DNA of 64,000 nucleotides from Raillietiella orientalis (lineage: Eukaryota): assembly GCA_036172245.1 (NCBI GenBank), contig JAYWIR010000011.1, positions 1,736,001-1,800,000 of the forward strand, written 5' to 3'. The notes beneath the pieces were generated by a model, which was given only the letters and a program-made list of their open reading frames with translations, made no database searches and was not told the DNA's origin. Made by a program: the position numbers and the translations under genes. Every line of letters begins with the position of its first letter. Within the stretch, counting starts at the first letter, position 1. This document shows, in pieces, positions 14,864 to 51,180 of the stretch.

Positions 14864-14943
<80 letters not shown>

Positions 14944-22919: not shown

Positions 22920-23185
22920 CACCATCGGAGGAAAACCCCGAAGGGCTTCTTGATTCCTAGAAGGTCAGCTTCCAGTCCTGGCCAGTCAACGGGGGCATCT
23001 GGCTTCCACCGTTGTCCCACCCGAAGTCCGTGGGTCAAGCAGAGTCATCCTGCTGGGGTAATTCGAACCCAGGATGTAGCCATTTCTCGGCGCCGATCCT
23101 TCCCGCGGTGGGATTCGAACCTGCGACGCTCGGTGCTTTGCGCGGAGAGACTGCATCCACGCTGCCGCCAACGCGGGCCAGTTTA
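22920..23185 (-). mobile_element. tRNA-derived SINE-like repeat, 5' part
   Basis: Minus strand has a perfect B box GGTTCGAATCCC (~23110-23121), a second gggttcgaatt (~23060-23070) and the shared ggatgcccccgttgactg-type body motif. Confidence 0.7.
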
Positions 23186-23746: not shown

Positions 23747-23973
23747 ACTTCGTCGACGCCGCGGGGAGGTGCGAGCTGAGGACACTCGAGGACAACGACG
23801 CGTACATCCGGTGCGAGAAGCTGCTGCCCGTGAATTCTTCGGAGCCGAAGAGGCTGCACTGGGTCGCGGTGGAGGACAAATCCGGGAACTTCCCAGCAGC
23901 CGTGCGGAACGCTTCGTGGCCTTCCGAGCCTATCTTCCACGTGGGGAGCCTATCGCTGACCAGAAGACACAGG
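23747..23973 (+). CDS. Side-like gene exon (FN3-like domain, first part)
   Basis: Acceptor ttgctctttccag|, donor |gtgaac; (D)FVDAAGRCELRTLEDNDAYIRCEKLL...LHWVAVEDKSGNFPAAVRNASWPSEPIFHVGSLSLTRRHR resembles the two-Cys FN3 of Side proteins (C...C...V-x-N...P-x-F-x-V-x-x-L). Its phase-1 start matches the 8319 donor. Confidence 0.72.
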
Positions 23974-25468
23974 GTGAACTTGCTCTTTCGAAGCGACATC
24001 CCCTCGAAGGAAATCTCGATACTGGGAATCCTGTCCCAAGGGACGAGTTCGAGGAAGCCATCAGGTAGGACGGTGAATACACCCCGCGATTTTCGCATCC
24101 ACTGGCTCCCGCGTGCTCCAGAAAAGCCCGGAAGTTTCCTGAGAAACGAGGGCGGAGAGGGAGTCCTTCCCGACACGCTGGACTTTCGCCTCCCCCGGAA
24201 CGTCCGCTCGGTTCCTACCCCTCTTCCTCAAAGACAGAAAGCATTGCTTCCGAGAAACGTCGTCCTCTCAAGGGCGTCCCTGGTCCCACATCGTAACGGA
24301 ACCCCCTCCTCCCTTCCCCTTCGGCTGCGGCTCTGCGCTCCTCGCTCTTCTCGAGGAAAATGCGGCGTGCCCAACCTCTTCGACCGAAGCGAACCCGGTC
24401 GGTACCACCTCTCTCCTTCCGGATTCGCAGCGGATGCGCGACCCGGAAGCAGAGTTGGGCCGGGACCAGGCCCAGAGCTCTTCTTCAAGTCCCTTCCGTC
24501 TGTCTACCTCGTTCGGATCCACGTCAGTCTAAATGTAGAGTTTTTTTTTTTCGGATTTCTTCCGGTGTCGGGGAAGAGCGAGCTGGTAGTGGGTCTGGGG
24601 AAACCGCCTTCGGTTTCTGCCTTCGATTTCGCCCACAGCCCACTCGCTGTTGCGTACGTGCAGATCGGCGTGCCACGGGGGACCTCGCGGTAGCAGTGCG
24701 GCGCAGAGGAACCTGGAAGACGATCCGGTTTCCAGGGCAGGAGCAACCACTGGGATGCTAAAGAGGGCGTTCTTTGATTTCCGGCTAACAGTGGCAACGA
24801 AAGCTCGGTCTCGGGCTGCCACTTTGTGCTGAGCGTCAAAAACCGTTTGCTCTTCCCCGGTGTCCACCTTCCGAATCACAACGACTTTGAGAGTAGAGTA
24901 GACGCTTCCCGGACCACCTCCTCGATGACATACAGCGCTCATCCCAGAAATGCTTCAACCGTGGATTGCAGAAAACTGCTGAAGACAGCATCTTCAAGAA
25001 CTTTACCGGCGCGGATGGCGGCGGCTCCCGGCAGAGAGGTCAGGAAGGATCCACCGCTCCACCCGAGGAACTCGCGGATCCCCCGCTTGAGCTGGTCGGA
25101 TTCTGTCTGGAGAGATCAGCTGAACCTCGAGGTCTTCGAAGAATCGCAGGGGACCCCTCCTCAGGGCATCGGATCGATTCTCCCAATTTCGCGAGTGTTG
25201 ACCTGAGAGCGGACGCCCGGCTCGAGCATCCGTCAGTCACCGTTTTTCCCGCCGAAAGACACGTCGATATGGTAATACGATTATTGGTCTCCGGAGGACG
25301 GAGGCTGCGAGTCGGGCGGCCCGGACCACGACGGGCGTGCGTCTAAGGAAGGGAGGATTCCTCTGTCCCCCTCGTCTCCCTGCGTTCCCTTTGACCTGGC
25401 TGTCCCCGTGGCCTCCGCGCGGGGTTCCTTGCAGAGATGAAGGCTCCCTAGGGAGGGTCCTCTCTCAG

Positions 25469-27220: not shown

Positions 27221-27384
27221 CCCACGAGGTCGCGCTGATTCTGGGGTGGTCGTCCATTCCGCTGGTGACGGCACTCGTCCTGTGCGTCTGCTTCTACAGG
27301 AAGTGCCTGCGGAGAAGCCACGCGTCCCGTGATCCGAGGAACTGACGCGCGGCGATCGGAGCATCACTTGGGATGATTGAAAGT
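27221..27384 (+). CDS. Side-like gene transmembrane exon; in-frame TGA at 27343-27345, GTAAGT donor at 27385
   Basis: Acceptor ctcctcttcag|, phase-1 start; (A)HEVALILGWSSIPLVTALVLCVCFYRKCLRRSHASRDPRN*RAAIGASLGMIES is a hydrophobic helix followed by a basic stop-transfer segment. Not in the ORF track because it has no start codon. Confidence 0.75.
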
Positions 27385-30300
27385 GTAAGTTGCGAGTTAG
27401 CACGGCGGCGCAGGAGGCGGGGACATCCCGGAATCACGCTGCACGTGATTTGTGGGGAAGGCATTTGCTGTCCCCATGGGGTCTACCGGCGGCTCGTACA
27501 GCATCGGTTCTTGACAGATACTGAAGATTTGCTTCCTCTCTTCCAGGGCAGCAGCCTTTGGGACTGCAGCCGTGGAAGCACGGCTAATCCGATCGTCAGC
27601 GCTAACCGTCATGCACGGCAATCAAGAGGAACCCGGCAACGAGGATGGATGTGCTGCTGAAACGAGCGTTGTCGCGCGTGGTGGCAGCGAAAGCCCTGAC
27701 GAAAGCGGGAACGTGAGCTGCCCGCTGTCCGCAAAATCGGTCCACAGGGTGGACCGTTCCCTGCCTGGGTGGACCACACGAGCTTGACGTTCCTCTCGAG
27801 TTTCCGAAGACATCCGATGAGGCCTTCGGTCAGCGTTCCACAAAACGGGAATCGCGGGATGGAACACACCCCAAGGCGCAAACAGAAAGCCTTACCATTT
27901 CCGAAAATACACGCATATTTTTTTTTTTTTTTTCCTCCTTTTCCATCCCTTCCTTTGTCTCGTTTTAGAATCCAGGGAAGATTCACAATACGCTGAGATT
28001 CACCTTGATTTTGCCTTCCTCGAGCGGCGAGCGGAGGCGGTGGGTTGGACGCCATGGCGACCTGCCGGGGATCCAGGAGTCCTTCAGCGCGCGTGGAAGG
28101 AAGGGCTGAGGAGCTGCCGAAACGAAAGCATCCCGCAAGAAAATGCCCTAGGGGGAAACGGAAAGAAAGAGAGAGAGAGAAAAAAAATCTAGAATCGCTC
28201 CAAGAAACATGAGGGCGGAAGTTTCGACATGCCCCTTACAAAGGGCATTTCCGCAGATTGCCAAGAAGTCACCTTCTAGAATTCTTGAACGAACTCTTCT
28301 TCAAAGGAGGAAATGGCAAAATCGGCGGGAAAAAGCGGATTCGCTCAAGACCATCTCAATCATCCACCCTTAATGGACTGCGTGGTCCGCAAGCCCTCGT
28401 TTGTTACGCATCCCTTATGCACCCCCTTCGAGGACAAAAATAGCTTTTCCCCGTTACCTGGAAAGCACTCCCTCCATGCGCCATTCGGGATGCGCTGCTG
28501 TCCAAATCCGATGCATCCCTATGGAACACCGGAGCAAGAAGCGCGCCTGCAGGATCCAGTGAAATTTTCACGTCGCGATTTGCAATCAGGAAGACGCGAT
28601 GGGTTGCTAAATAGGGAGGGAGAGCCGGTCAGGGTGCTTTCAAGCTGCGGTGAGGACAAGATGGCTGGTGCAAGCGGTGGTTTGCTGTCTCCCGAAGACG
28701 GGGCCTATTCCGTGGGTGCGCGCTCCTTCCCAGAGCATCAAAGTCTGGAGGAAAGAAGGCGTTAAGAGAGTGGTGCTCGCGACCCAGGTGGCGGGGAAGG
28801 AAGAGGAGGAGGAGAGCGCAGCCTTCTTAGAACCACCCCATGGACGTTGCAGCCGTTCGTAGAGCTGCCTACGCCTTACGAACGAAAGAATGACAATAAA
28901 GTGCTGAATGGGAAAATCGGGAAGAAGCGCTAACGGGAGGAATGCCATCCAATCAGTGAATGAAAGTGTGGCATTGCATTATGGGATCAGTTACGAAGGA
29001 AATGAGGGAGAGCTGTCCGAAGAACAGCTGCGCAATTTTTCTGGAAGACGAGGCCAGCGACCACCGCACGCAAAATAGCGAGCTGCCGTGGGCTATCAAA
29101 GCAGAACTCTTGGTTAGCTCGTGAGCTATCCCTGACGGGATCCCTTTTGGCTGGACCCCATCCAGCAGCGGAAGAGCGTACCGCGCCACCCGGAAGGATC
29201 GTTCCCTGGTCGAGGTTCGAGACTCCGCGTGAGGAACGAGACGTCTTCCGCAAGAGGTCGAGAATCCCGACCTTTCGAGCTCCCGCTCCATCCATCCTTC
29301 ATGGCTTCCTAAGACTTCACTTCTCAAGGAGGATTCTCAGGAAACCCGTTTTTTTAATCCTTCCGCCATGTTCTTTCAGGATGTACGGTGTTCTGAAAGT
29401 TCTTTGACCCCCCGCATTTCCTTACCTAAGGGTGCCACAAGGCATTTTCTTACGTGCAGCAGAGGCAGTTCAGGGTCGGCACGATAAATCCCGCGAAAAT
29501 CTCGGGGAAACTTATCAAATGATCTGAAGATGTTCAGTGAGACAATGATTCCTCGGGCTTATCTCAAGGACAGAAAACGTGCTGGCGCGCACCACTCGCA
29601 AGCAGAATTCATCTGACATCGGAAGATTAGGGAGACGGTCCCAGCATCCTGAATTTAGAAACAAACTGGATGCTGGAAATCCTCGATATCTTGGGAGTTT
29701 TCGTAGCTCGCAAATAATCTCTTATTTAGCCATTCTGTGCCAGGACTGGTTACTTCAGGGATTCCGTGCTCGAAGATTCAGCTTAATGAGGTTTGGATGA
29801 TGGGCAATTTTTCCGTGTGTGCTGGCGTGTGGCGTTAGTATATTCAGGAACTATGAAGAATGGACGTGCTAATGGTTTCACATCGTTCGGTTTATTTTTT
29901 TTTTTCGTAGATCGTTAATATACGAGTGAATGGGGAGGCGATCTTTGAGAGGTGGCATAAAGATCGGGAAGCGGATACAGGCGCGGGAGAGGCTAGCTAA
30001 AGACTTTCTTCCGAGGGTGGGATGAATCAGTGAATGACGCGGATGACTTTAGGAATTGAAGGCTGACAGGCGAGGCAACAGGACCCCTTTCAGATTCCTT
30101 CCCGAGGCGAAGAAAGAATGGAACAAAACGTTCCAGACATTAATTTTCCGTGTCTCCAACGAGCTCTGCGAATCAGGGCTTCCCCCTTGCCAAGACACGT
30201 TGAGGACGCCTCCTTCACATCATGCACGGTGTGCACCTTCTTGAAGGAGGACCGGCTCTAAGCCTTTAATAATTTCCTCTTTTGCAGCCGAATTATTAGC

Positions 30301-30974
30301 CGAAACCAATTCAACTCTCTAGCGAGCACACAAACGTCCAATATTCCAATCCGTTGTGAAAACGCGAATCGGCAACGACAGGAAAGCATCAGCACATTCA
30401 CGCGGCGGCTACCTAATATGGACATAAGAAATTGAAAACAGCCATTCCCGGAATGTGGTAAGCCCGCAACCAAAGTCATCTCGCAAGCTGCTGATGAAAG
30501 AAGACGGCGATGTGAGGGAGCTGTGGTCTCACACCAAAGTCGGAGAACGTCGTCGTCGAAGGGCTGAATGGGAATTTATGGAACGTACCCGCCAAACGCC
30601 CGCCTGAAAGGTATCTCTATACTCATCTACTCAACCACTATGTTACAGCATCACAGTCACGATGGCTTCTCCGTGTTGGCTTCATTGGCAGCAACGCCGT
30701 GGGTTGGCAAGCAACGAGCTGTCGGTTCTAAAACGAAAGAAATGGAAGGCGGGGAAGAAGCATGCGAGTCTTTTTTGCCTGTTTAAAACTGAAACGATAT
30801 TCGAGGTCGAAACTTCCTCAGCGCCCAAAGCCTTTTCCGATTCAAAAGTAGCAACGAATACTAATGAATGGATATAATTAGAGGATCGGAGTTCAGTTCC
30901 CCGAGCTTGGATAATTTTTGCGCTTTCCCTTCTTTCCTGTCTTCGCAGTTCTTCGACACGGGTCCGTACCACAC

Positions 30975-31670
30975 GAGTGTGGGTAATTCTTCAAGATAGG
31001 GGGTACCCCCGGCCTATGAATCCAGGAAGGACTCGGAGTCCGTTCTTCTCTCGCCTGGGGAGGGATCCCCGGAAATGGAGATCACCTCCATCCTGGTTGT
31101 CTCCGAAGGGGAACCCAGAAGGGAATCCTCCTTTCTTATTCTCTCCGGATCCTTTCCGAGTTCCCTTCAGAGAAGAAGGGAACCCGGAAAGGATCCGATC
31201 CTGGAATTTCTTCTCGGAGGGATCCCCCGCAAGGGATCCGCTCCTGCTTACTCCTCTGTAGAGAACCCAGAAGGGACGCTTCCGAAATTCAGAAGGGCGC
31301 AGCTTCCCCGAAGGAATCCGCTAGCATTCTCTGGACAGGTGGTGGCGACACACCTACTCCATTAGCACGACACGGAGGATCCCCCCGGAATGGGGGATCC
31401 TCTCCTCCACAACCGGAGGGGAGCTCCCACTCTGTGATTCCTGGAAGGACCCGGAGGTCGAATCCCATTTGTCCCGGCCCTCGTCGGGGGCATCCGGTTC
31501 GAACCATTTCTAGTGCCGCACCCGGATGAATGCAGGCCAACCAGTGTCATCTTGTGGGGTGAACTCGGAACCCACGACGCACTGCGTCGATTCCTTCGGA
31601 GTATTCGAACCCACGACGCTTAGTGGTGCCACGCGCGGAGACCACCGTAACCACACAGCCTCCGACGCGA
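30975..31670 (-). mobile_element. tRNA-derived SINE-like repeat copy
   Basis: Minus strand A-box-like tggttacggtgg and B-box-like gggttcgaatac; body matches 15590-16195 and 10035-10580. Confidence 0.72.
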
Positions 31671-31749
31671 GCTTTTCCTTTGTTCCCGGTCCAATCCTCC
31701 AAACTCCATCCGATTAGTTAATTGGAAACGCTGGAGACGTACGTTCAAA

Positions 31750-33600
31750 ATAAGTGTGTCCTGCGCGTCCGTGGCTGTCATTGCGCGACCAGTTATCAAA
31801 GGTCACACACAACAGCTTTATTTCCGCCACTCGGAAATCCCCATTTCCGAATTCGGGAAATCCAGAGATGGCTCAGCTCACTCCATTCGCTTCTGGGTGA
31901 GATGTTCTTACACGTGCTTCCAGAGCCAAGTGCGGCCACATCTCCGAACAGCTCCAGAAGCCCGTGGCTCAGAACTTCCGTGGACGATGGTCGCTGCGCT
32001 GGCAAATGGAATAAAAAATCGCATCCGCTGGAAGTAGCTTCTTGGGAGTCTGCGGTCGCTGATCATCGGTTGGTAAGCAATTGTTTTGTAGGGCTCTGAA
32101 GTGCGGAGGATTATGGAGCAAAAGCCAGAGTCGGTTATGCGGGCTTGTAATGGCTTCGCACCCATAGGGAGCACATCCCCCAGGCTTTAGATCACGTTCT
32201 GAGTGCTCAGCTTGGTTCGTGTGGATTCTTCCAGAACTGGCAGCTACACATGAAAACGGCAACTACGCAGACCCTCAACACGAAATTGCTGAAGCGCGCG
32301 ACTGGACAAAGATAGATCAGATGTCAAGATCGGATCAAAGGAGGCGACTTTCACTGCGTGCCGCGTATCCACGGAAACCAAAACGCATTTATGCGAACTG
32401 TGGAGCTCTTTCACTCGTCTCTGTTGCCGGGTGCGGGATTTTAGTTTGGGAACGCGTTTACCGTACTAAGGAGCTTGGATCTTCTTTCCTGGAAAAACTT
32501 TCTCAGGGTATTGTTCCACAAAAAAGGAAAAGAAGTTCTATTGAGCGCTGGGCACGCGGCCTGTCCTACCTAACGATTTCGTCGCCCTCACCTTCACCTC
32601 ACAGGTCAGCTGCCCCCTCGTGAAGCCTCGGTCCCTCTTCCCTACTTTTAATGAAAGTTTACCTACGCCTATTCCAGTTGTCGCCTGCTTTGCATGACTG
32701 AGCAGGGCAAGTCTTGCAGAGGACTGTCGACACGCTGACAACGGGGCTGCTCTGGAAGCGCACCTTTCCTTTAAAGGACAGCCAAGCGTTCTTTGCTGAA
32801 GTTTTGAAGAATTCGTCCTTGCACTCTTCACCAGCAGAAGCGTCAAAAAACCTCCCGATTTATGAATGAAAACAGGCTAAGCCATCCGAAAGTTCGTGGA
32901 ATGGTAGAGTATCCCTAAAAGGTTTGTCAGCAGAGGTTCATTAAAACCAAACGATTCCTTGTTTCACCATTCTTTCAGGATAACAAATGGTCTTCACGTC
33001 CCTTCATTGTCTGCGTTCACTACCAAATATCCGCAGGTCACCGTCTAACGATCTGCGGCGCGCTTATCAGAGAGTTTGGGGCAGTCTGGTGTCTGTCTAG
33101 AGGAGAACAACCTGGAGAATTACTGGAATGAAAGAACGCAGCAAAATTCTATTTCGCCCCTTCATTCGTCGTTCTCGATGGGAGGAGGATGGAAGGTCTT
33201 CGTTGGAAATGAGGACTGCGTCGCGCGCCAGCCAAAATTGCTCTCTGAATGGATGGGTTTATAAATTTCCTGCTCTCGTCGCCATAGGCAACAGATCTGC
33301 CGATCCGATCACGGGAGCCTGCATCCCGACTGAGCCGATTTCATGCAATCGTTTGGTATCCGCGGACATGGGGAAGCCGTTTCACGGAGGTGCTGTAGAT
33401 GGAAATGAAATCGAGGAAAGCTCGATGGAAAACTGCCTTAGGAAGGAGAAGGACGTATACGCTTATCCTGGACTGCGGCTGAGTTATTTACACGCATCCG
33501 ATCCGACGAGTGCGTCCGCAGAGAGAGAGAGCACTTCCTTCCCGTGTCTGGCCGCCCGCCTGTACGCTGCCATTCTGATCGCTGCGTTGGACAAGCACGG
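31750..33600 (+). mobile_element. Decayed hAT-superfamily transposase (ZMYM1/PRKRIR-like type)
   Basis: Motifs in the expected order across frames: LRTHRE (cf. LRGHxE), NYADPQHEI (cf. IQNEI), VWER, SESSW (cf. xTRW), and the C-terminal dimerisation motif YPGL...PTSASAER (~33465-33525). Confidence 0.55.
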
Positions 33601-34479
33601 GGGTCCTTCCAAATACTCTCCTTCAGCAACCGAACGAGGTCACCCTCATACTGGAGACCAGCGACTGCTGACCTGTGGTCCGTAGGAAGGTTGCCCACAG
33701 GAAGGCTCCAGGGAGTGCGTCTCGCCGAAGCGAGCCCTGATTGAGACGAATGGGGAAAACAATCAACGGATAGGTCCGGGAGATGGGTGATTATCCTTTT
33801 TGTAAAAGGGGCTCCCGATCTCGAGCCTGATTTGCATTAAAGTGAACTTCATTTCCAGCATGGTAGACATTTGGAACGCGCGTTCATTACAGGCAGTGTT
33901 ACCATACATCTCTTCTTTGGCGAAAAACACACACGCACACGCAGTAAATAAACATTTATCCGAACATTGTGCATTCCATAAAGTGAATAAGTGATGTATT
34001 TGTAGCCTATTGGATTCGTGTTTACGACGGCCATTCGTTCCCTTCATTTGCATTTCCACAGAAGATTCATCCACAAGATCACGATAAAGAACACCTTTGA
34101 AACATCTTGCTATTTATAGTCTGATAACATGCAATACTTCTTAGGGCATCTGCTTGGAAGATCTCACATGTGAAGGGTTTCAAAATATTACGTCCAAATA
34201 ATGCGTTGGGATTCCGAGCTTTCGTAGGAAAACACCTTTGGCTTTTTCATTGGAAGCTGTTGGAGAAGGGAAACGCCTCCAAGGAGTAAGGAGGAATTTG
34301 CTCTTCCTTGGAGAAAACTGGGAGTTCCCCTTCAGAAGAGAAGTCACAAAAGCGAGTGCAATGACCTGAATTCGAAAGCTCGTTGGTTAATGCGAATGTA
34401 GTAAGGAACTAAAGGAGGTCAACTTGCTGTGTCCGCGGTTCCCTCCCCTTCCTCAGAATTCTGTTCCACCAGGGACAAG

Positions 34480-35100
34480 CACCCCTGAATACCAAACGCC
34501 GTTCGTTCTTTCCACTTCCTGACTGTGGCACGAAGTATGTCGAAGTGTGGAAGCAGCACGCTGAAGCATCTTACTCTCTCTGTGGTTCCTCTGAGTACCT
34601 CTGAGATGCAGCGCCCAGAGATGTAGGAGCGCGCGATTTCCTCTGTAGGGGTGACCTGAGCCGGCAACCATTCTTTCGGGTTTCTTCCGAGCGAGGTCAG
34701 CGTGAGGTTCGCATTCTAAGAGGGCTTTTTCCTCTTTTCCAAGAAGACACTTTTGGAGCAGAAATCCAAGCGGCTCTCCGTGGCTTCCGCTCTGGTTCCA
34801 CGAACTGATGAGCTCGTCCAAGCACACGTCTTTAGAAAACGACAGCTGTCCGCATCGCAGTGGCCAGAACCCGCGCTGACACACCCACCCACTGCCATTC
34901 CCTGGAGCTTCCACCTGAATCACGCCTGCCAGATACTCCTCCAGCAACACCGACGTCGGCTGGGACCCCAAACACTCGGTTTGTGATTCCGCTGATGCGC
35001 ACCCGCACCCGGGATCACTGGAGGTCACCAACCGTCCAAAATGAGGGCCGCGCTCCAAAGGGCGTAGAGCTTCTGCGACTGCGGTGCGAGGCAAAGAGAT
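34480..35100 (+). mobile_element. Probable decayed fragment of the same LINE family
   Basis: RDFLCRG and RRLGPQ resemble segments at 44.4-45.0 kb and 54.3-54.9 kb; heavily frameshifted. Confidence 0.35.
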
Positions 35101-36859
35101 GTACCAAATGAATTCTTCCTTATGATGAATCGCCTTCTCAGGACATCGGAAAGGAATGATTTTCCTCTTACAAATGAAGAAAATACGAAACCATCACGAG
35201 TGTCATGTTGAAGAATGGGGGTACCATTGAATACATCCACACTTTTTGAATGGATGGAGCAAAGTACAGCATCCAGTAGGGAATCTGAACAACACACCCA
35301 TGCTCCGCGGAGCTGAATGATGCGGTTCTTCGAAAGACATTCATTTCTCTCGATGCCTGTTCATTTGAAAGTCATCATTGTGTTCTTCAGAAGCAGCGAA
35401 AAAAAAAGGAAAAAAAGCACAAAGGATTTGTCCTGGCCATTGCTGCCAAGGACGATGCAGAATAGAAGGATTTCGCAGCACAGATTTTATTTTCCAAACA
35501 AACTAATGCCATCCGGAGGAAGAAGAAGAGAGAGGATGTTTGAACCAAAGCATTCATCAAAGAGAACGGAGACTGGAGGTGTGTTTTTGGAATGGAATGA
35601 CCTTTCAGAGTGCCACGAGTCGCCATCCTTCTCTTTTGCAATTTCCGTGCTCCTCGCAGCAAAAAAAAAGAAAATTATATCATAGAAGTGCATCGACAGG
35701 CAATCGGGGAGACGAAAACACAGCTTGAGCTGGAGAAGAGGGGCCATGGGGGACCTTCGTGCCTCAGCGGGACGCGCACACCCGTTAAAGAAACGCGCTG
35801 ACCGAAGGGGACCACGGTTTCGTGTGTGGAGGGCGCCAATTCCTTGCATTTTAAATCTACGATGGCCAGTCCCTCTCCTTCCCTACTCGGACATTTCAGG
35901 GCTGGTTGGTTGATCCCCCACAAAATGCTTCACAACGAACAGTAGGTTCAGCAGCGTCGTTCCACCAGAAGGAGCGTCTGCTTGCCCAGAATTTGCGTCT
36001 CCCGCACTAGACGCCTCCCGTGTTTGGGGATTCTGGTTTCCTCTCCCGGTGCTTTCGTCTGTTGGGGAGGCGTTGGTGTGTCCACTCTGTGATGTTTCTG
36101 GATTGGCACACTTTCTGACGCCGATTTCCCGTTTCCCTGTCCGCCCATCGACGTCGGTCTCCCTTTTGCCATTTTTTGCCACCTGTGTCGCCTTGATGCC
36201 CGTGACGAAGAAGGCGGAGCGCATCTGGGTCATTGGGTCGCATTCGGGAAAGCCATCGTTCCCTTGAAATATAGTTCCTTCTAAATGGATTCAATTTCGA
36301 CGATATCTGTTCTTTCCTCCCCCGCATCCATGGTCTCGCTTGCTAGATTCCAGCCTCTGCATGTTGTTGGGCAGCTGAAGAAGTGAACTTCCGCCTCCAC
36401 TTCGCCGCCATCTGTGAATCCGTGTTTCGAGTTTTGGAACGCGCGCTTCCGTTTGCCTCGCGCGGAAATCTCCCACAGAAGAACAGGAAAAGGCATCCGG
36501 CGTCTGGGGCATCCGGTTGCTAATTGTCCGACTTCCTCACTGATAATTGCTGTCATCTTTATATTTATTGATTTTTTTCTCTTCCACATTGCATGAGCGT
36601 ACTCCAAATCCGTGGTAAGAGTTCTCTTACCCGACTTGCTGGTGAGGGAGGGAGGAGATGGACTTGAAGGGGAACGGAAGAGAGACAGGAAATCAAGTTG
36701 TTTCCTCTCTCGAAGAACAATTTTCAAACAGCAATCGTAGAACGCGAAGCAGGAAACCACAGGTGGAAAACGAAAGATTCGGGTTGCTGACATCCAGTGA
36801 CTCCCCGGTAGGACAGAATGCTCGGAGAAGACTTCAAGAAAGCAAAAAAAGGATTTTGT

Positions 36860-37075
36860 TTTATGTATTTAAAAAAGGTGTGCTTTTTTGGTGGGCTTTA
36901 TGGAGCGTGGAAAAACCACAAGTCTACTGTGAAACGCTTTCGAAACTGCGGCGTGCCATTCAGAACCGACGAGGTGGAATGCTGGGATCAGGAATTGTTC
37001 TTCGTCACGACAACGCGCGCCTTGGCAACCTCATGCTGTCCTCAGATTTATTCATTTATCGTAAAGGGTGGTCTA
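36860..37075 (+). mobile_element. mariner transposase remnant (internally deleted)
   Basis: KKGVL...VYCETLSKLRRAIQNRRGGMLGSGIVLRHDNAR closely follows the mariner YCETLxKLRRAIQNKRRGML...LLHDNAR segment that contains the second catalytic Asp. Confidence 0.85.
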
Positions 37076-37086
37076 TGGTCTCGCAT

Positions 37087-37132
37087 ACACACACACACAC
37101 ACACACACGCACGCACGCACGCACGCACGCAC
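37087..37132. repeat. (AC)n(GCAC)n compound microsatellite
   Basis: Seen directly. Confidence 0.97.
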
Positions 37133-40100: not shown

Positions 40101-41599
40101 AGGCGGCACGCCGAAGGAAGCACAGAATTCCACGACCGTGGGCTTCCGCGTCGTTGATGTGGGATTGCAATCGGATATTCGTGATGGAATTCATCGGAAT
40201 GCTTGTAGGGCATTTTTTTTTTTTTTTTCCTCTCAGAAAAGGAATCCATCCTCGCTCATCAAGGCCATCATGACATTTTATCCATGTATGATGATTACAC
40301 AGCTCGAGAAGCAGATGTAATCAGACTTTGGGAGCAACTCCTTCGTTCTCCTTTTAATCATCGGAAGCTCCAGCCATTCTTCCTAGGCACTTTGATCCAG
40401 TCATGTTTCCATTGGCGAGTCTCGTGTTTCTTCAGCAAACGCTGCAGCGGGGCTTTTATGAAGCGCAGCAACTCATGAAAAACGGAAAAGTTTTCCTGGT
40501 CCAGAAAGTCTTCCTGCACGACTGATAGCTTCGGAGAGCACTGAGATGCTGTCGGGAATGTCAAGTGAACTGACCAAGGGGAGCAGTCGGATAATCTCAA
40601 AGCTGGAAAGAAGAACCGCCTCCAAAAGATTCCGAAACTGCCTGAATAAGGGATACGAGAAGGTTGCAAATTTTTACCAGCAAGAGGAAGTGACTCTGCG
40701 AGATCATCATTCTTTAGCCTTGCCGTAAAGCAGCAAAAGCTGAAGAAGGATTTCAGCGTCGGATTGCACCCGCCCGAGAGATGCTGTCGAGATGGACCGT
40801 TCTCTCCGCTCTTCAAATAGTAGGCGAAGAGTCGCGCTGTTGACTGAAATCGAAGAGATTAAAGGACGATACCTGCGGGCGGGAGCCTGGCTATGGGCTG
40901 CTGAACCGCAACAGCCGCATCCCTTCGAACACCTCGGAAACGAAGACCTTGGAGTAGCATAGTAAAATGGAACAACACCAGCGATAACTTTCAGTTTGAG
41001 ACGCCCTCCCTGCGGATGATGCGCAATCCCCGGCATACGGATCGCACACCACGTTTACGGGGGTCTCTTCCTTTGCCCTCGGGAATGGGCGGCGCTCGTG
41101 GCGTTTGCCTCTGTCCAGGAAACGGATGCGAGCCAAGTCGAGAAATCATGCGGCCCGCTGTTCCTCTTTGAGGACACTCACGGCTCGATGGGGAAAGTCC
41201 GCAAGTTCTGTCGGGGCGCTCTCGGGTCGGCGTTCCCCCTGATGGAAAATCTGTGCCGTTTTCACGTTTCTTTGATACGTCTCCGAGTTAGTTAATAGCA
41301 TCCAACTCTCCCCACGACAAATTGCCTTTTCCCGGTTTTGCTGTTGTCTAAGTAACGAGCACCCAAACAAGGAAGAAATCCCCGGTTGCTCTCCTGAGAG
41401 AACTCGCTCGGCCTTCGTTGAAAGACTGTTAAAACATGGAGTCGCTTTGCGCGCATCTGTTTGGGTGTGAAAGATTCCAAGGATTCCATGTGTGGTCTCT
41501 CCCTTTTCTTTGTCATTTTTCACCAGGAATAAGAATTTGATCCTCTGTCACAATCTTGTATCGGAAGAAGTTGAGATTCCCGAGAAAATTCCCTTTGCC

Positions 41600-42680
41600 A
41601 TTTTCCGGTTGCTACAGACGATCTCCGAATGGCATGCAGCTCATCTTGGAAGACGCACAACTTCCCGAATTGCTTGGAACCATCTATGGACTTAGCCTGA
41701 GATTTTCATTTTGCAGCTGGGGAAGCTTAGATCCGAATGTTTTCCGGTGGTCCAGTTCTGAAAACTCTCGACGGATAGTTAAAAAGCAAAACTTTTCCCT
41801 CTCCCGCCTGCTACTCGTCTCATTTATTGCAAAGTCCACTTCAGTAATGAGAAAGACAAAAAACTCTTCTGCATCTGAGGGCTGCCTCGTGATTTAGGAG
41901 TTGAATCAGATCCTGATTTGATCCCCCTCCTGAAAGTCAGTCGCGAGTGCAGAAAGCGTGCAAAGAGCTTCGTTGTCATGGATACACACACGTGTTCGCA
42001 CTTGATTGAATAACGGCACAATCCGAGCAGTCCTTGCTCCAGGTGTGCACGCCCTGCAAAGACCAGGCGGTAACCGCATTTTGCATCCGACGGGACGAAG
42101 ACGCAACTTGCTAATTCGCGTCGGACTCCGGACCAACGTTGTCATCAAAGGGAGCAGCTGACTGTATCAGTCTCCTCAGAAGTTATGTTTACTGAGATGG
42201 GATGCTGGGAGAGCACGATGCACACATCTGTGATCAAGAATCGGCTGGCATCGGTGACAACATCGAAACGAATGCTTGAGCGCGGAATCCGATCGCAAGG
42301 AGTTTCCGGTGGAGATCCACAGCTGATCCGGGAGGAAGCGGGGCCGATGGGGGGGGGGATGCCGAGGTGATTGAATAAGGAATTGGCAAGATGAAGTATT
42401 CGATGAGCGTCATCGAAAGATCCCGATGGCTCCCGGTGTTCAGATATTGCGAAATACAATGAGCAGATCGAACGCGTCGGACAACGTCCGGTGCGCACCT
42501 TAGGGCGTTCACGGTCAAGCACGCTGCGGTACGAACCGTGTATTTGCAGGGCTTCGTGCAGGTTGGCAAGCCCGAGGCACTCATTCTGAGCAAGGAAAGC
42601 ACTCTCAAGCCATGGAAGAGGGAAGGAAACCAAGAAACCCAGCTCAAGCATGAAATTCATTTGAGCCACGTGAGCCTCAT
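41600..42680 (+). mobile_element. Decayed hAT transposase fragment (catalytic core)
   Basis: REQLTV / LRSYVY*DG (cf. EQL...RYV), DPDGSRCSDIAKYN (cf. YDGAxxMxGxxNG) and VHGQAR..NRV (cf. VHCxAHxLNL), in the correct order. Confidence 0.45.
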
Positions 42681-43049
42681 AGTGCTGCGCTTCCCAAACT
42701 GCGCTCCGTGGTGTTCCCGTGGACAGTCAGTAAGCGTTCCGCGAAAAATTATGAAAATAAATATATTTCAAATACGTTTATTTTACCATTTTGATGTGTG
42801 TTTTGTTTTGCATAGTCAAAATTTGAGAATGAATGCTTGTTTTGTTTTCTTAACTCTTACATTTGCTTGCTTGCTTTATTCGTTACGAACATCTTTCCAC
42901 CTTGCCTTATGGTTACCAAGGTATCCCGCCGAGATTTCAGCACTTGTGGAGTGTCGTTTCCGTCATAGGGAAAGCATGGGAAACGCTGTCACGGTGGAAG
43001 ACGGCCTTCCGATAACCCGCAGCAAACTGATCTTTTTCTATTGGACTTC

Positions 43050-43550
43050 CTCCGGTGAGGTAAGCCGAGACGGCAACTGCATCTTCGTCGTTGCGTGGAT
43101 CGAGGATTGTGATGGGAAAAAATTCCAAGATTCAGAAAACGCCTCGATTCAGACCACCGAAGACGGGAGAGGAAGGGGAGGGGGAAGGGAGACCCTCGTG
43201 CCACGCACCAGTTCGCCACGAATATGCCCGGATCAGTTAGTGATGCTCCTGTGGATGCTGGAACAGGCCATCACCACGTGGAAAAGAGCGTGCGCGCGCC
43301 CGATGCTCCGCGTTCCTTCCAGCGTGGAAAAATTGGTTGTCCCAGGCGAACACATTGAGAAAATTCAGATCTCTGTCGTGGGCGGGATGAAAATCCGAGA
43401 TGCCGTCGTTCGCGTGCCCGAAGGGAAACTTCGGACTCGAAGGTGCGAGCTGAACGGCCCTCCCCGAGCTGGTGATTCCTTCCACCGTGAAGCTCGGAAA
43501 CGAAGCTCTTTGTGCGAGCACTGTCACTTTGCATCGACTTTTGCGTTGCA
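43050..43550 (+). pseudogene. OTU-like cysteine protease domain remnant
   Basis: VSRDGNCIF (cf. DGNCLF catalytic loop), LVVPGEHIEKIQI (cf. G-W-G..EI helix) and HCHFAS (cf. HYxS), in one frame and in the right order. Confidence 0.4.
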
Positions 43551-44164
43551 AGGATGGTCCTCCGAGCAGGCCACTCCAGTCTTGAGGAACGAAACCGGGG
43601 GAAAAAAAAAAAAAAAGAATCTCTCTCCCCTCCCCATCCTATCTTCGGGCAAGTCCACTCGGTATGTGCCCCGACCTACTTATGGGGTTGAGGTTTTCAT
43701 AGTCAGATGATGATGAACAGAATAAAATGGAAAAGTCCACTGACACTTCTTCGCCAGCAAGCTAGATGTGGAGCTCCTGAGAATGACAGGAGTTCCCAAC
43801 GCTCCAGGTATGGGCCGTAGGAGGGATTCCAAAGCACCGCCACAAAATGCAATATCCGAAGTCGTCACACTTGGATGGCGGATTCAGTCAGGTTCCTCCA
43901 AAATGGTGCTGCAACAGGATTTTACCCGGTGACTCCGGGACGTTTATTTAAAAAAATGAACCACAAGTCAGAGGGGAACAGTGTTCCCTGAATACAAGAG
44001 ATGCCAGAAAAAAGAAGAAAAACAGCAGAAGTTCATTGGGGATGACCACCTGCACGCAGATCGACTTCTATGAAAGCAGGGGACGGAGGAAGGGGACAAT
44101 AAATAAACATAAGAAAAAAGATAGGAGGGTAAAGGTCTTTGGTTTTATCCGTTCCTTCCTTTCT

Positions 44165-45700
44165 AGGAGAGGCTGTGCATGATGGCGACCTCGCTGATGA
44201 CTTTTTCTGATACAGGAGGCCACCTAGCAGCTGTTCTCATGAAGGCGGCTGCCATGCTGATGGCCTCCTTTCTCTGCGGACGTGACTCCAACACATGGCG
44301 GGCTGTGACAGTGGCGCGGCAGTTCTTTGCGATCACAGCGCCCGTCATTTGGAACACTTTTGTGGCCCCCGTCCTCCGACCCCTGCTTTCTGTTTGTTCC
44401 CCCCCCCCCGGTGTGGTAAAAGAGACGAAGGGCCTCCTTCAAGAAGCCCTTTGGGGCAGTGGGAGGTCCCGAGTCCTAGTAAAAGACTTGTGCGCTCCTC
44501 GTCGCGATGCAGGACTTGGACTCTTGACGTTGGAGCGCGTGGAAGTTCAACTGAACTTAAGAAGACTGGCCTCCGTGGCACAGAACTGGGCCACCCATTG
44601 GTGAGTCCCTACACGCTCGCTCTCCGGTTGGCGGTCGGTGGCGAAGGACTCGTAGCCCTGCTTGAGCGTCACCACCTCCGGCTCCTATCTTGAGGCTTTC
44701 CCCTCCGGTGTGTCGCTAATCTGATGAAAGCGAACACGTGGATTTCCTGCCGCCCCGCGAACACTCCGTCCTGGAAGCAGGATCAAGTGAGGACTTGGAT
44801 CCAGCTCATTCTGGTCCCGTCGGAAGTCACCTGATGCCGAGAGTTTCGGAAGAACAGCGGAGGTGGTGGGCAGTGAGCTGACTACGCTGGCTTACCCACC
44901 AGCCACCCCCTTCGCCTCAGCGGTGTCCGGCACCTGCCCACCGGCGAAGCGGGAGGTTTCCTGAGAGATCTCGGCCCGCAGAAGGCCCACAGTGGCTGGA
45001 CTACGCGAAAGCTGCCTGAAACAGCAACAGCAAGAACCGGCTCCAAAGGACTGGAAAGTGGAAGCGGAATATTCTCCATTCAGCCCGAAAAGTTAGAAGG
45101 GAGAAGGGCGTAGGGTGGATCCGATGAGATCCCAGGAGATTCTGGCGCAGCCCACGATTCTGACGGACAGTTCCACTCTTCCCCGGAATCGGCACTGGTG
45201 ACGTTTAACTGGGGAAGGGGGTGGGGGCTGGGGGAATCCCATGCAACGCCTGCCGGTGTCATTGGTCCGGGGGGAAGGCGGGCTCGAACTGAGACAGGTG
45301 TGTGCGAAGAAACCAAGTCCTGCCACGTGGACTGCGTTGCCTTCTGATCCTCCGGGGACGTCCTTGCCACGACCCTCTGCATCACCGGAGACAACCCCAG
45401 AGATACCATAAACCGCCCTTCGCGCGAGGATGCAGCCGCGCACCGTTGGCAGCTGTATGCTTCCTCCGAGGGATTGAGGTAGTGCTCGGAGCGCCAACGA
45501 AGGAGGCCGGGACGACGGGAGGTCCATTCGCTTCGCCATTTGCCACTTCCGGATCACCTCATCCGGAAGAAGACATTCGGATGGAGCTCGCAGAGAACGC
45601 AGAAGTATCCGCAGCAGGCAACGACCCCTTCCCGAACCTTCCCAACTCGACGTTCCCCATTTATCTATTTGTATTTTTGTTCGCTTCCCTCCCCTCCGTT
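44165..45700 (+). mobile_element. Decayed Tx1/L1-like LINE ORF2 fragment
   Basis: LLQEALWGSGRSRVLVKDLCAPRRDAGLGL is the post-RT FLW.G...LC.P...GGLG motif; T-rich/C-rich tail at ~45660. Confidence 0.6.
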
Positions 45701-47399
45701 GCTCGGAAGGACCTCTCAGAGTTCCATGCCGGCATCTCGGCGTCTTCCCCGGCGAATGTGGAAGTGGCCAGACGTGGAGTCCTGCCACCGGTGTTTTTTA
45801 GGGGAGAGAGGATGGGGGTGGGATGTTTATCGGTATCAGGGAACACCTCGGACACCCTGGAGAAACGGAGCGATAGACCCCGAATTAGGAGGCTCCACTA
45901 TTTACCTGCTTCTCTCGAAGGCTCTTCAGGGGATTTGGATGCAGGAAGGAATGATGGAGCTCACGAAGATTTTGCTTGCCAGCCTCCCCCCCTTCTCTCT
46001 CTCCCATCCCCCATCCCGAAAAGATGGCCTCGGAGGTGCCTCTGAACCCGCGGAACTCACGACGCGAAAGGGAAGGGAAAATCGGGGTGGATGATGTCCC
46101 GGGATCGCATTGGTTTCGTGGGGGATGCAGGTCCGAAGGAGAGCCATCTTCCTCGTGGGAAGCCTACCGGCAAGAAAAGTCCTTCCGCGTTCCACGGACC
46201 GCGCGCACGTCGTGATCCGAGCGGTGAACTCTCCAAGGCACCTCTTCTTGCGAAGCACCCGGCAGGCGGAGGAAGAAAATCTCCCTCCCCGCCCTCCCCC
46301 CAATCCACGAGTGCCTCTCGAATTGTGAACCTCCGAAACCGGAAAACTTCAGGTCCGCACGTGCGCGCGTGCTTCTTTTTCCGCACCAGGTTACTTACCT
46401 CTTCCAGGATGCCGGAGAATGGACGTCCGTCCGTTGCACGCCTCTCGGGTTCCCTCGGCAGCGGGCACGGGGTGGCGATTGCCGATACCCAGCTCGGGAG
46501 CACTCGCAGAGAGCTTCGGCTCCACGTCCGCCATGCGGGTGACACGAGCCGCGGGGGATCAGTCCCGAAGGACGACCGGTGACGTCATAGCCAGCGCAGC
46601 CCTCGGTCGGAGGGAAGGGGGGGGGGGAGGGGAGAAGATGGCAATCGACTTCCGTGGCAACTTCAGAAGCATCGGCTGTCCAGACCTCCCCACTCTCCCG
46701 CATGCTTTGGATGCCGATCCGCTCCCGAATTCCTCTGTGCGAAATGGACCAGGATGATGACACTTAACTGTAGCCGGCAGCGGAGGTCCTTTAGTCACTC
46801 GATCTCATTGCGTGGGTCCGCTAATTGGTCGTATAATCTCAGTCCCGGGTCGCGGCGCGGCCTGCTGAACGCTCGGCAATCAGCGGCGATTATCTGGCAA
46901 ATGTCCGGGAAAATGGAACCGGGGATGCGGGCTGCTCAAGGCTCCGGAGCGCTGCATGCGCGCTCCCCCGGGCCGCTCATCCCACGGTACTGCGGATGGG
47001 GACCGCGCACCCGGCACGCCTCGCACTTCAACCTAATTAACCTGCGCTTTTACCGAATAGCCTGGATGCAGATGAACGCCCTCCCTGACAAGGGCGCCCC
47101 GGGAAGATGATTTATGTGACAGGGGTGCGTTCCCCAGGACGCGGTTGCCACGAATCGCACTTGGCGTTCGCGAAAGGCCAGCACGCTTTCGGCACACGTC
47201 CAAATATCCTCCCTCGCCTTCCCCCCTCCATCGATGGGGAAGTAGCATCTCCTGTGAAGGAATTACGGCAATTGCGACTGACAGCGCTGCGTCTCATCGC
47301 ACGTGAAACGAGACCCTCCCGTTCCGCGGAACGCGGAACTTCGTTTCCTTGCCGACCGGTTGTTGACGTGAGACGCCGATCACGACTCTCTGGCACGAC

Positions 47400-47750
47400 T
47401 TATTGGAACCCGCTAGGGCATCCCTCGTCCCCCTTCCCCCCGCCTTCTTCCCTTTGAGGGATGTGCTCAGTGGAAAGGCTGCGTTGGGGTGTCTACGTGA
47501 ATACCCCGCACATTCAGCAACACTTGTTCCTCCCCCCCCCCTCTTGGGCCATGATGGTGCAGATGACCGCTGGTGGAAGAGGGCTGCTCTCGCATGCCTC
47601 AGGTCACAGAGACGAGATCTTCGCGCCCCATGCGCTTGACTTCTGGCCTTCAGGCGCTGCCCATGCTGACGCTCGCACAGAGGTGTTCAGGGAGTTCCAT
47701 TCTCCAGTCCAGGAGGGCGAGAGAAGGGGATTCCGGTCTGAGTCGGTGAT
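47400..47750 (+). mobile_element. Probable LINE ORF2 fragment
   Basis: DRWWKRAAL and VFREFHSP resemble RRWW (44860) and LREILEHP/LREIVSHP (54980, 56280). Confidence 0.35.
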
Positions 47751-47992
47751 GACATTTACACTTTCAAAGGAGAAACTTGTTTTCCCCCTTCGAGACGGAA
47801 CGCTGCGATGGAATCCTGCGAGGTCTCAAAGGGCTTAGGGCACCAGAGGTCTCGGGGAAGTTCGGGAAAGAAGTCAGAACGTCTGTGGGAGGTCGTACCT
47901 GCGTTCCCACTTGCTTCAGAACCTCGCTCTAGGCAATGACTGCGACACGGGAAGCAGGGATAAATCTCCGTCGAAGCGCGAGCGAAGGGACC

Positions 47993-49919
47993 TGCTGGCG
48001 GCGTTCTCGTCCGCAGCCGCCAACCTCGTCGCCGAGGCGGCAGGGGTGGGTCTCCCGAGGGCGGGAAATCGATTGGGCCTCCTCTTCGTACAAAGAAGAG
48101 ATCGCAAAGCACTTCCGGACGCGAGATGACCCTTCGAGGGAACCCGGAAGCGTTCGTTCCCGATCTGGAGAACAGACCGCGCGCGTGCCATGACTCCGTG
48201 TTCGAGTACCGAGCAGATTCCGTGCGCTGGACCCTCGCAAGGCCTCCAGGATAGCAAGAGCCGACGGCCGACGATCGAACCGTCCGCAAGCCCTCCGATC
48301 CCCTTCGCCCACGCCTCGGAGGACCCGAGCTGGTTGCTTGGAGAGCCATTCGGCATGCAGAGAACGTGACGCGAGCCTCTGCCGCGGACAACTCCGCAGC
48401 AGAGGTTCTCGGCGCGAGAATCGGCTTCCGGTTCGACTCAAAAGAGAGAGAGGGGGGCGTTGCTCCTGGCAACGCGGCAGTTCGGTCGCGCGGCTCGGTT
48501 GCGGGATTTCGAGGCGGACCCCGGGACGGTGAGCTGCCCGAGCTCCTCGAGCCGGGCGTCGCCACCGATCCCGCGAGGTGGCGGCTGGGCCGCCGGGGAG
48601 CGGAAAAAGAAGCCCGGTGGAACCCTGCCGAGGGCCTGGTCCCTGAGGGCGGATACGGCGAGTTCTGCCGCGGGGACGGGTGCCCGTCCTTCCTCTGACG
48701 TCTGCTCCCGGCCCGTTCTTCTTCATCGGAACCCGTTTATCGGCGCTGTTCGAATGACCGACCGTTGCGGGTTTTCCCTGGTCTGGATGCTGGACGAGAA
48801 ACTTCCTTCGCTCTCGGTAAGATGATCTCGGACGTGGGATTCTGACTGCGGGAGCGCCGCGACTCGTTCGTCCCGCCTCGGAAGATGCCTGCTCTCTCCG
48901 CTGCGGCGACCGTGACTGAAAAGCGAGGATCCTCTCTTCGCTCCGGAGCGCGCGGGAAACCATGGAAACGGCTCAGAGGCGTTGCGAGAGGAGGGCGTCC
49001 TCAAATGCGCAAGAGAATCACCGCTGAGCTGCAGTTTCGTCGTTCTTCCAGGGTCCTTCCCGCGCGTATCCGCTCTTCGTCCCTCTCGCTCGGGAGCGAC
49101 AGGAGGGCGCTCTGCGGAACTTCATGGCGGGGATCCGTGGCAACGAGAAGATGAAGGAGGCTTGATCCCCACGTGGAAGGAAGGGGGGTAGGGAATGGCG
49201 GTTCGCTTCGGTCGCGAAATGGACCGCCGGGCTCGCTGTTTTTCAGGGCTGTCCTGCCGTCACCTTTGCCTATCGCGGCGGTTCTGGCGCTCTCAAGAAT
49301 GGCGGGGGCGGAGGTTCCCCAGACGGATGCGCCGGATGCATCTCGACCGTGGTGGAGCCTCTCGCCTCCGGCAAGCGGAGGAACCTCCTCGGCGGGAACC
49401 GTCGGCTGGCGGTCACCTCGACCTGCACTCCACTCTTTCCCGGCGGAGGTGGATTCGCTCACGTGCGAGTTGTTCCCCCCGAGGGTACGAACATCGCGGC
49501 AACGCGCGCGAGTGCACCGCATCTCCGAACAGATGGTCCGGATGCTGGATGAGAAGTCTCGTGAACATCGCTGTTCGGACTTTTCCCTTGCGGTCATTCG
49601 CGGAGGGAGACGAGACCGTTGAAGAATGCGTGACCTCGTTCCCGGCTGCGGAAAGCGAGTGAGTGGCACGCTCGGCGGGAGGCGGTCCATGCGCAGGTGA
49701 ATGGCGGGATCCGGGATCGAGAGGGTGGTCGCGGCATCGGGATCGAGGGACTGAAGAGTTCCTCCCGAGTGGACTTTTGCCTGGTTCCTCGCGATGGGGC
49801 GGCGGCGGCGGTGGGGCACCTTACGGAGATGAGCAGTGCAGAGTTGCTGCAGCCTCGTAAAGTTCAAAGTCTCGAATCTCGGGAGTCTCTCGAACGAAGG
49901 ACGATGCCGAAGAGGGAGG
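47993..49919 (-). repeat. 1.93-kb inverted duplication, copy B (decayed LRR sequence)
   Basis: Reverse complement of 607-2533; near-identical ORF translations in the mirrored track. Confidence 0.97.
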
Positions 49920-50448
49920 GAAGGGGGGAGGCTTGGCAAATCCGAGAGTACATCGTAGCGACGCACGCCAGCGCACCGCGTGACCAACAGCGATGGTGCT
50001 GTTTTTCCTCCTTAAAGGTCGCTGGCTGTTGTTGTTGTTTTTCCTCTTCTTCGTAGTGAGCTGAGGACGCCCCACGCATGCCGCAACTCGTGCCTTCCAC
50101 GACCTCGTGACAGATTTTGGTCCTGGACCCGGAATCCTGTCTCCGAATTATTCGCATCGATGCGGGTGTAGCTTGGGGCGTGTCCTCTCAAAGCGCCCCG
50201 TCGCCCTAAAAGGAGGCGGCAGAATGAGGAAGCACCATCTCTTGGCGTAATTTCGAATCCCGACGCGTCACTTCTGCTCTCCAAAGACATCGTTAGATCT
50301 TTTACATCTTTCCAGGCACTCGAAGCAGACTGCAGATCAGATTGCCTCAACCAGTCGTCGAGACCAAAGGAGCCTGCGTGCGCAATATCAGTTTTTTTCT
50401 TCTTCTTCTTCTCTCCTTTGTAAAATCTTTTACCTCTCCGTTTTCCAG

Positions 50449-50859
50449 GGTCCCCATGTTCCAGCAGGAGAGACGCAGACCCACTCGAATGTCGTGGATA
50501 TGGAGATGGTCAGCTTTCCGCCCATCCCGGAGCAGTCTGCAGAAATGGATCCCTCCCTCGCACGATCGGCGCTCTCCCCGGATGAGGTCACCAGCACTTT
50601 GCAAAGGGCGGGATGTTTGAGCTCCCGTACGTCCCTCCCCGAATGCGACTTGGCAGTCGCTTCCCCATCCCTTCCGAGACCCTATGTATCCGATGGGAGA
50701 ACGAGGCTCGCCTCCGTCGCCCGGGAAGGAAGCAAGGAGAGCCTCGAAATCACGAGATCCCAGATGCCGCCCACGGGAGCACGCCTGGGTCACTTCGAGG
50801 ACACGAAGAACTACTTGAACTCCCTTTCGACTACTTGGTTTCCCGCTTTCAAGGAATAA
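50449..50859 (+). CDS. Candidate terminal coding exon (low-complexity cytoplasmic-tail-like), possibly of the Side-like gene
   Basis: Long pyrimidine tract plus ttttccag|, then 136 open codons in phase 0 (GPHVPAGETQ...DEVTSTLQRAG...KNYLNSLSTTWFPAFKE*), AATAAA at 50863-50868 and an AT-rich 3' flank. The link to the upstream gene is inference from phase only. Confidence 0.45.
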   Translation, partial: GPHVPAGETQTHSNVVDMEMVSFPPIPEQSAEMDPSLARSALSPDEVTSTLQRAGCLSSRTSLPECDLAVASPSLPRPYVSDGRTRLASVAREGSKESLEITRSQMPPTGARLGHFEDTKNYLNSLSTTWFPAFKE

Positions 50860-50862
50860 GAA

Positions 50863-50868
50863 AATAAA
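50863..50868 (+). promoter_or_regulatory. Candidate polyadenylation signal AATAAA
   Basis: Starts 4 nt after the TAA of the candidate terminal exon. Confidence 0.35.
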
Positions 50869-50920: not shown

Positions 50921-51180
50921 GTTTATGTATTCATTCATTCATTTATTCAATCACTGATTTATTTACTTATTTATTCTCTGATTTATTTATTTATTCATTC
51001 ATTCATGTATTTACGTATTTATTCACTTATGGATTTATTTCTTTATTTATCGATTGATTCACTCATTTACTCATTTACTAATTTATTTATTCACGAATGC
51101 ATCGATTCATTAATTCCTTTATTTATTCGTTCATTCATTCATTGGTCCATTTATTTATTTATTTAATCATTTATTTATTG
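50921..51180. repeat. Degenerate (ATTC/ATTT)n tetranucleotide tract
   Basis: Seen directly. Confidence 0.9.

Follow-up and report, generated by a model that had tools for sequence, protein, structure and literature searches.

A candidate UGA readthrough site behind the transmembrane helix of a divergent Sidestep-family receptor gene in Raillietiella orientalis

In a 64,000-nt window of the Raillietiella orientalis genome (assembly GCA_036172245.1, contig JAYWIR010000011.1, positions 1,736,001 to 1,800,000 of the forward strand), a gene for a Sidestep-like receptor meets an in-frame TGA shortly after its transmembrane (TM) helix, which raises the question of whether this TGA ends the protein or is at times read through into a longer cytoplasmic tail. 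Weighing all readings by judgement rather than by computed odds, we tentatively favor functional UGA readthrough as the single most likely one. The original prediction had proposed such a switch between a short-tailed and a long-tailed receptor, built on a splice junction from 27384 to 50449; readthrough is still the likeliest reading and has gained a predicted stem 3' of the stop as added support, but that junction must skip a strong exon, here called F, which had been overlooked and begins 162 nt past the donor at 27385. For comparison, five Sidestep (Side) paralogues were followed, out of 19 C2-set matches in the assembly (210 Mb, 491 contigs).

The region around the stop is made up of the following elements.

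27221 to 27384, forward strand: TM exon of 164 nt, with the helix reaching about 27291 and followed by 17 cytoplasmic codons, the TGA and 13 further codons
27343 to 27346, forward strand: in-frame TGA followed by C, single copy in the assembly
27385 to 27390, forward strand: strong phase-0 donor GTAAGT, 10.0 bits

The TM exon, the TGA with its following C, and the 13 open codons leading up to the phase-0 donor had all been described before and are indeed present. Splice sites were scored with matrices made from 35 paralogue exons whose ends were chosen by consensus score, five of them corrected by hand, and the scores are therefore partly circular. Of the 1100 GT sites between 27221 and 50449, none scores better than the donor at 27385, and 3 of the 3042 GT sites in the window score this high. 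The acceptor of the TM exon is weak (-7.5 bits). Thirteen codons would stay open by chance 70% of the time, and a C follows 22% of the TGA trinucleotides in the window, so that the leaky UGA-C context is present but weak alone. Neither the TM region nor exons D and E (described below) have a second copy or haplotig in this assembly, each giving one match, namely itself; the exact 29-nt pattern had 0 matches in metagenomes.

Upstream of the TM exon, six exons of the gene could be placed in the window.

3294 to 3494, forward strand: second-half exon of Ig2, Side profile E 2.7e-10
3844 to 3995, forward strand: first-half exon of Ig3, matched by the paralogue-exon profile and by the Side profile
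4950 to 5091, forward strand: second-half exon of Ig3, Pfam C2-set_2 E 0.0013 (below cut-off), Side profile E 1.4e-4
5619 to 5749, forward strand: first-half exon of Ig4, Pfam Ig_3 E 3e-5, Side profile E 2e-7
8166 to 8319, forward strand: second-half exon of Ig4, Pfam Ig_2 E 1e-4, Side profile E 1.4e-4
23747 to 24064, forward strand: exon D, phase 1/1, 105 codons, probably a degenerate beta-sandwich at the FN3 place, as suggested by codon use and a low-confidence model

Judged by these profile matches, the host gene is an intact but divergent Sidestep-family Ig receptor. A Pfam search recognized three exons as Ig or C2-set pieces, every score falling below the curated cut-off, and a profile built from five paralogue exons added one more (3844 to 3995, E 5e-9). 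This paralogue-exon profile also drew 150 unannotated proteins, of which we picked 15 as Side-like by our own judgement of size and match position, and the profile of those 15 matches seven exons (two of them upstream of the window) at E 2.7e-10 to 1.4e-4, ordered over profile positions 66-436. The Ig1-Ig4 exons fit the family profile in order, with intron phases as in the paralogues. When the exons from 3294 to the TGA are spliced, they give 1220 coding nt, or 407 codons, whose sole stop is the terminal one; because these codons are open up to the TGA, the gene is not generally decayed.

Fly Side is described as carrying five Ig domains and one FN3 domain, together with a TM helix and a cytoplasmic part (PMC9743010). 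The present gene has a single TM helix with a cytoplasmic part (TM-tail profile E 0.11) but departs from the family in several ways. No Ig5 exon was found at E < 2 between 8320 and 27300, exon D matches no FN3 profile, and both domains are present in 5/5 paralogues. The place, size and phases of exon D are right for FN3 and its codon use is of the coding type (fraction of G or C at third codon positions, GC3, 0.80), while its seven-strand model has a predicted local distance difference test score of 45 and no fold match at E 0.001; a resemblance to Side FN3 seen by eye was not confirmed. Homology searches with exons D and E returned nothing, as did a control with a paralogue exon, and such searches are therefore insensitive for short exons. 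The TM exon is not a multiple of three, whereas in all five paralogues it is, ends in phase 1 and contains no stop. The family tail motifs are absent as well: NPD-x-IP reaches at best -0.3 bits in any frame, making it unusable as a frame guide, and the ES-x-V/I terminus was not found in this gene. The cytoplasmic tails of 12 Side relatives measure 76-298 residues, against the 17 left by the TGA here. As a separate observation, Ig5 may have been lost from 8320-23746, where no such exon was found, and dropping a phase 1/1 exon would preserve the frame.

What lies downstream decides what readthrough could produce.

27516 to 27526, forward strand: two weaker acceptors (AG ends 27517 and 27526; 4.6 and 5.7 bits), giving phase-0 entry to the protein-like frame of F
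27547 to 27712, forward strand: exon F, 166 nt, with one frame open throughout (55 codons; enters in phase 2, exits in phase 0)
27658 to 27660, forward strand: second stop, TGA-A, met on the default splice
50449 to 50859, forward strand: exon E, a 136-codon phase-0 open reading frame (ORF) plus TAA, probable last exon, acceptor 11.5 bits
50863 to 50868, forward strand: AATAAA, followed by a 79% AT stretch (50930-51190)

The acceptor of exon F (27546) scores 14.0 bits and ranks 3/1478, and its donor (27713) scores 8.3 bits and ranks 4/1100; comparably strong acceptor-donor pairs were formed by none of 9 acceptors in the further 22.5 kb and by 1 of 10 on the minus strand. The 136-codon ORF (50449-50856), its TAA and the AATAAA are present as originally described. 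Among 32 strong acceptors in the interval, two open a phase-0 ORF of at least 136 codons, and for two a poly(A) hexamer lies no more than 60 nt from the ORF stop, both features coinciding at 50449 alone, which makes the distal ORF moderately unusual; seven further AATAAA hexamers precede 50863. We infer that exon E belongs to this gene. The open frame of F and exon E are in phase and open over 191 codons. Tail-likeness was measured as amino-acid composition relative to Side tails, with overlapping intronic stretches as the null, and was equaled by 49/776 null stretches for the F frame and by 1/67 for E; synonymous codon use supports coding in neither. By composition, the F frame and E look like a genuine tail, which would favor readthrough. 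Two side observations concern this interval: a 49-nt candidate exon at 40237-40285, which has the interval's top acceptor (16.8 bits, with a long T run) and a donor of 6.5 bits, would alter the reading frame that links F to E, and the second copy of an inverted duplicate (607-2533 and 47993-49919; 1927 nt, 99.0% identical) ends 530 nt before E.

Exon F also undoes the earlier argument that a stop less than 50 nt before a junction would escape nonsense-mediated decay (NMD): the TGA lies 39 nt before the first junction, but F puts the last junction 205 nt past it. The exon-junction rule may in any case be inapplicable in arthropods, exon boundaries being reported not to define premature stops in Drosophila (PMC4304730).

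The added support for readthrough comes from RNA folding, in which the bases just after the stop pair with exon F.

27347 to 27360, forward strand: 5' arm of the stem, pair probabilities 0.84-1.0 in the spliced fold and 0.99-1.0 at four tested pairs unspliced
27588 to 27602, forward strand: 3' arm of the stem, within exon F, same folds

[quoted passage not shown] The spliced 120 nt gave z values of -3.7 and -4.35 in two runs, with 3 of 289 scored GC-matched windows as low, and a duplex as stable occurred at 7/945 TGAC sites, at 0/36 other exon junctions and in 0.5-2.3% of three other nulls. The stem thus exceeds 98-99% of controls, as a single-sequence prediction with a short spacer and no covariation. 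It persists with the acceptors at 27517 and 27526 and in the pre-mRNA, and is gone when F is skipped (z 0.09); the 27384>50449 mRNA of the original prediction would lack it, because the 3' arm sits in the skipped exon. No local hairpin forms inside the 13 codons (z +1.0). As to the stop itself, top fly readthrough candidates are reported to be enriched for +4 C, +9 G and -7 G, while -2 A is associated with ordinary termination in flies (PMC13278127); the first three are all present here, and +5 A is missing.

Taken together, most translation of this mRNA would terminate at the UGA and yield a receptor whose cytoplasmic tail has 17 residues; the remaining ribosomes, a minority, would insert an amino acid at UGA-C, helped by the stem between the post-stop bases and exon F. 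The stem is presumed to form and to promote readthrough. Splicing would then set the product, with tail sizes counted from the end of the TM helix. On the default junction (27384>27547), readthrough would add 51 residues, ending within F at 27658, for a tail of 68; through the acceptor at 27517 or 27526, the tail would be family-sized, with 232 or 229 residues, or similar with a one-base indel (one extra base in the assembly near the junction); if F were skipped, it would have 167. The extension past the stop is accordingly 51 codons on the best sites and 150-215 on the weaker routes, all over predicted junctions. Under every reading except a sequence error, the protein from the default mRNA should be mostly 17-residue-tailed.

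Several points weigh against readthrough. The best donor is in phase 0 and the best acceptor enters the open frame of F in phase 2, one base off, and the F part of the 51-residue default extension is not tail-like (1302/1659 null stretches do as well). The acceptors that would be in phase fall short of the best by 8-9 bits, whereas the largest such gap in the paralogues is 4.5 bits, and the codons that they add are not tail-like either (9393/11843 null stretches score as high). Among the 35 paralogue exons, 4 have a stronger acceptor within 30 nt downstream and 4 a stronger donor no more than 90 nt away, with gaps of up to 4.5 bits (acceptor) and 4.0 bits (donor), compared with about 8-10 bits at this locus. 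GC3 drops at the TGA, being 34/40 on its upstream side and 6/13 on its downstream side (Fisher p 0.009), and the coding-to-noncoding density ratio of the post-TGA codons is 0.06-0.45. A stop within the TM exon occurs in 0/5 paralogues. The stem begins 1 nt past the +4 base instead of after the usual 8-12 nt spacer, its portion beyond +9 is equaled by 19/945 TGAC sites, and it was found after folding three spliced forms.

The 13 post-TGA codons carry no coding signature, their synonymous score being -5.1 bits and their composition average, in a stretch whose length gives low power. Of 291 windows from the exons of this gene, 13% score as low, as do 1.3% of 1145 from the paralogues, and GC3 also falls at the end of the TM exon in two of five paralogues. 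The 17 codons preceding the TGA resemble coding sequence (1% of null). The drop in coding signal argues with moderate strength for an end of constant translation at the TGA or slightly before it, and because of the lack of a post-stop coding signature, low as its power is, we class the locus as a candidate and not as a readthrough gene. A published rule also bears on this: a second ORF that has an exon break, with no coding signal before the break, is classed as alternative splicing (PMC5100048), and the rule describes this locus.

Readthrough is a mechanism of an already known kind. Conserved structures are reported for 9-10% of fly and mosquito readthrough candidates against <1% of other transcripts, and readthrough was estimated to be abundant in Daphnia (D.) pulex, the one crustacean tested (PMC5100048). 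Within the Sidestep family, published supplement rows list Drosophila side-V (CG34371) as a tier 1 conserved readthrough gene with TGA-G and a 34-codon extension, and place side-II, side-III and side-VI, among the rows listed, in tier 3. The likeness to side-V lies in the protein family and the UGA stop and implies no orthology; there the stop closes a 3423-nt ORF and the extension has 82% GC3, while in the present gene the stop comes after the TM helix, with a GC3 of 46%. Drosophila caps (capricious), with TAG-C and a 240-codon extension shared with Anopheles according to the same kind of supplement rows, is also a neuronal single-pass surface protein, and its C terminus, in the extended form, is similar to the unextended region of the related Trn (PMC4528330); it differs in being a leucine-rich repeat protein with a TAG stop and a conserved extension in a single interval, in contrast to a TGA and an extension crossing introns.

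In structure, the site recalls kelch and the alphaviruses, which combine a UGA with a 10-14 bp stem (14 bp in kelch), a 1-nt bulge and a long loop, but those stems have an 8-12 nt spacer and covariation, whereas here the stem is next to the stop, has its arms in two exons and is predicted from a single sequence; some plant viruses share stop-CG and +9 G with this site (PMC3159437). If true, the locus would be a crustacean-type example of a mechanism catalogued mainly in flies and mosquitoes, in which the very presence of a cytoplasmic tail on a Sidestep-type receptor would depend on readthrough and splicing would build the readthrough signal. Among vertebrate membrane proteins, L-MPZ (myelin protein zero) is an Ig-family member. 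It is likewise a C-terminally extended isoform made by readthrough, from an unrelated gene in which readthrough has been demonstrated experimentally (PMC7070019).

A more specific form of the idea is that readthrough is coupled to splicing: with the stem arms in separate exons, inclusion of F would arm the UGA, and the 3' splice site would set the tail at 17, 68 or about 230 residues. We regard this as quite unlikely, and a literature search, conducted largely without subscription journals, found no published case of a splicing-coupled readthrough stem. If it were true, nearly the entire signaling tail of an axon-guidance receptor would hinge on recoding.

Of the other explanations, the one that survives best takes the TGA as a working terminator of an ordinary short tail, F and E as 3' untranslated relics of a former tail that has since acquired a one-base indel, and the stem as chance or a splicing aid. 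We consider it somewhat unlikely. It agrees with the end of coding-type codon use at the TGA, with the out-of-frame default splice and with further losses relative to the family (neither an Ig5 exon nor NPD-x-IP nor an ES-x-V/I end was found), and a nearly tailless protein fits the report that the attraction of axons by fly Side requires Ig1, which partly suffices for it (PMC9743010). It does not readily account for a long F frame and an E that stay open for 191 codons, mutually in phase and tail-like; it requires two lesions in about 200 nt and none over 570 nt beyond; and both the stem (about 1-2%) and UGA-C (22%) must be coincidence.

Alternative 5' splicing without any recoding is unlikely as well. 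Here a weak donor before the TGA would give a stop-free tail of 194-207 residues, the TGA being removed, and the donor at 27385 would give the short form.

27300 to 27344, forward strand: weak pre-TGA donors, namely GA 27300, GT 27303, GT 27324 and GA 27339 in phase 2 and GT 27329 in phase 1, -5.5 to 2.3 bits

The routes would run from GA 27339, GA 27300 or GT 27303 to the acceptor at 27546, or from GT 27329 to 27551, and they require no lesion. GA 27339 suits both the strongest acceptor and the end point of the coding signal, GT 27329 would retain the phase-1 intron of 5/5 paralogues, and alternative splicing is the default call under the PMC5100048 rule. GA donors are confirmed in this genome in citrate synthase (intron of 1841 nt) and NUBP2 (intron of 144 nt), preselected and not random genes whose GA-AG introns both start with GAAAGT, and both GA candidates satisfy a looser rule, AG|GAA, described for the copepod Eurytemora (PMC5714493). 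Yet those checked GA donors are otherwise consensus, scoring 10.4 and 11.9 bits as GT, whereas the two GA candidates reach 1.5-2.4 bits even when scored in the same way. Furthermore, GA occurs in 0/35 paralogue donors (34 GT, 1 GC), every candidate trails the donor at 27385 by 7.7 bits or more against a largest paralogue gap of 4.0, and the coding-like codons before the TGA oppose donors 27300 and 27303.

Some further splicing features were seen here. Citrate synthase has a GC-AG intron besides its GA-AG intron, and the TM exon of one Side paralogue (C26) ends at a GC donor. At 27379, GAAAGT, the form of both checked GA donors, abuts the GTAAGT donor and resembles a six-base donor duplication. 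Skipping of the TM exon would join D to F (24064>27547) in phase 1 and end after 13 codons, giving a secreted ectodomain; GC3 of the codons read in this join is 10/12.

It is improbable that the normal gene has a sense codon here and that the TGA is a nonsense allele of the sequenced animal (for example, changed from CGA) or an error in the consensus. The tail exons do appear intact, but a sense codon by itself leaves the long frame unrestored on the best splice sites, GC3 is low past the site, no stop or frameshift occurs in 35 paralogue exons or in the 1220 nt of this gene, and the stem is left unexplained.

Other recoding, by selenocysteine, by A-to-I editing that turns the UGA into a codon for Trp or by a +1 frameshift at the UGA, is highly improbable: the UGA adjoins the stem and the +1 frame is the one required in F, but this frame meets a stop at 27373, the UGA pairs weakly in longer folds (0.18-0.25), and no Rfam selenocysteine insertion sequence was found at gathering score in the window, nor at E 1 near either stop, the extent of the 3' untranslated region being inferred. 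The A of the UGA is preceded by G, which is a poor context for ADAR. Scans of the locus for tRNA and Rfam families found none apart from one chance microRNA match in an AT-rich stretch. An altered genetic code is unsupported, as Dscam, citrate synthase and ParA-family exons read normally.

Without readthrough, what remains is a truncated paralogue of the ordinary kind, a case of alternative splicing or a defective allele. In practice, the outcome is a corrected gene model, in which exon F, and not the junction 27384>50449, is the relevant target.

A few features lie apart from these subjects. In one paralogue (C6), the protein-like reading of the exon after the TM exon seems, by eye, to switch frame, possibly by an indel or an unmodeled intron; exon F looks somewhat like this C6 exon by eye, though the frame of C6 is uncertain. 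A short stretch at about 36900-37030 resembles mariner transposase by eye. Finally, a direct duplicate of 1721 nt (14991-16711 and 61810-63530) is 99.9% identical, each copy adjoining a TA microsatellite.

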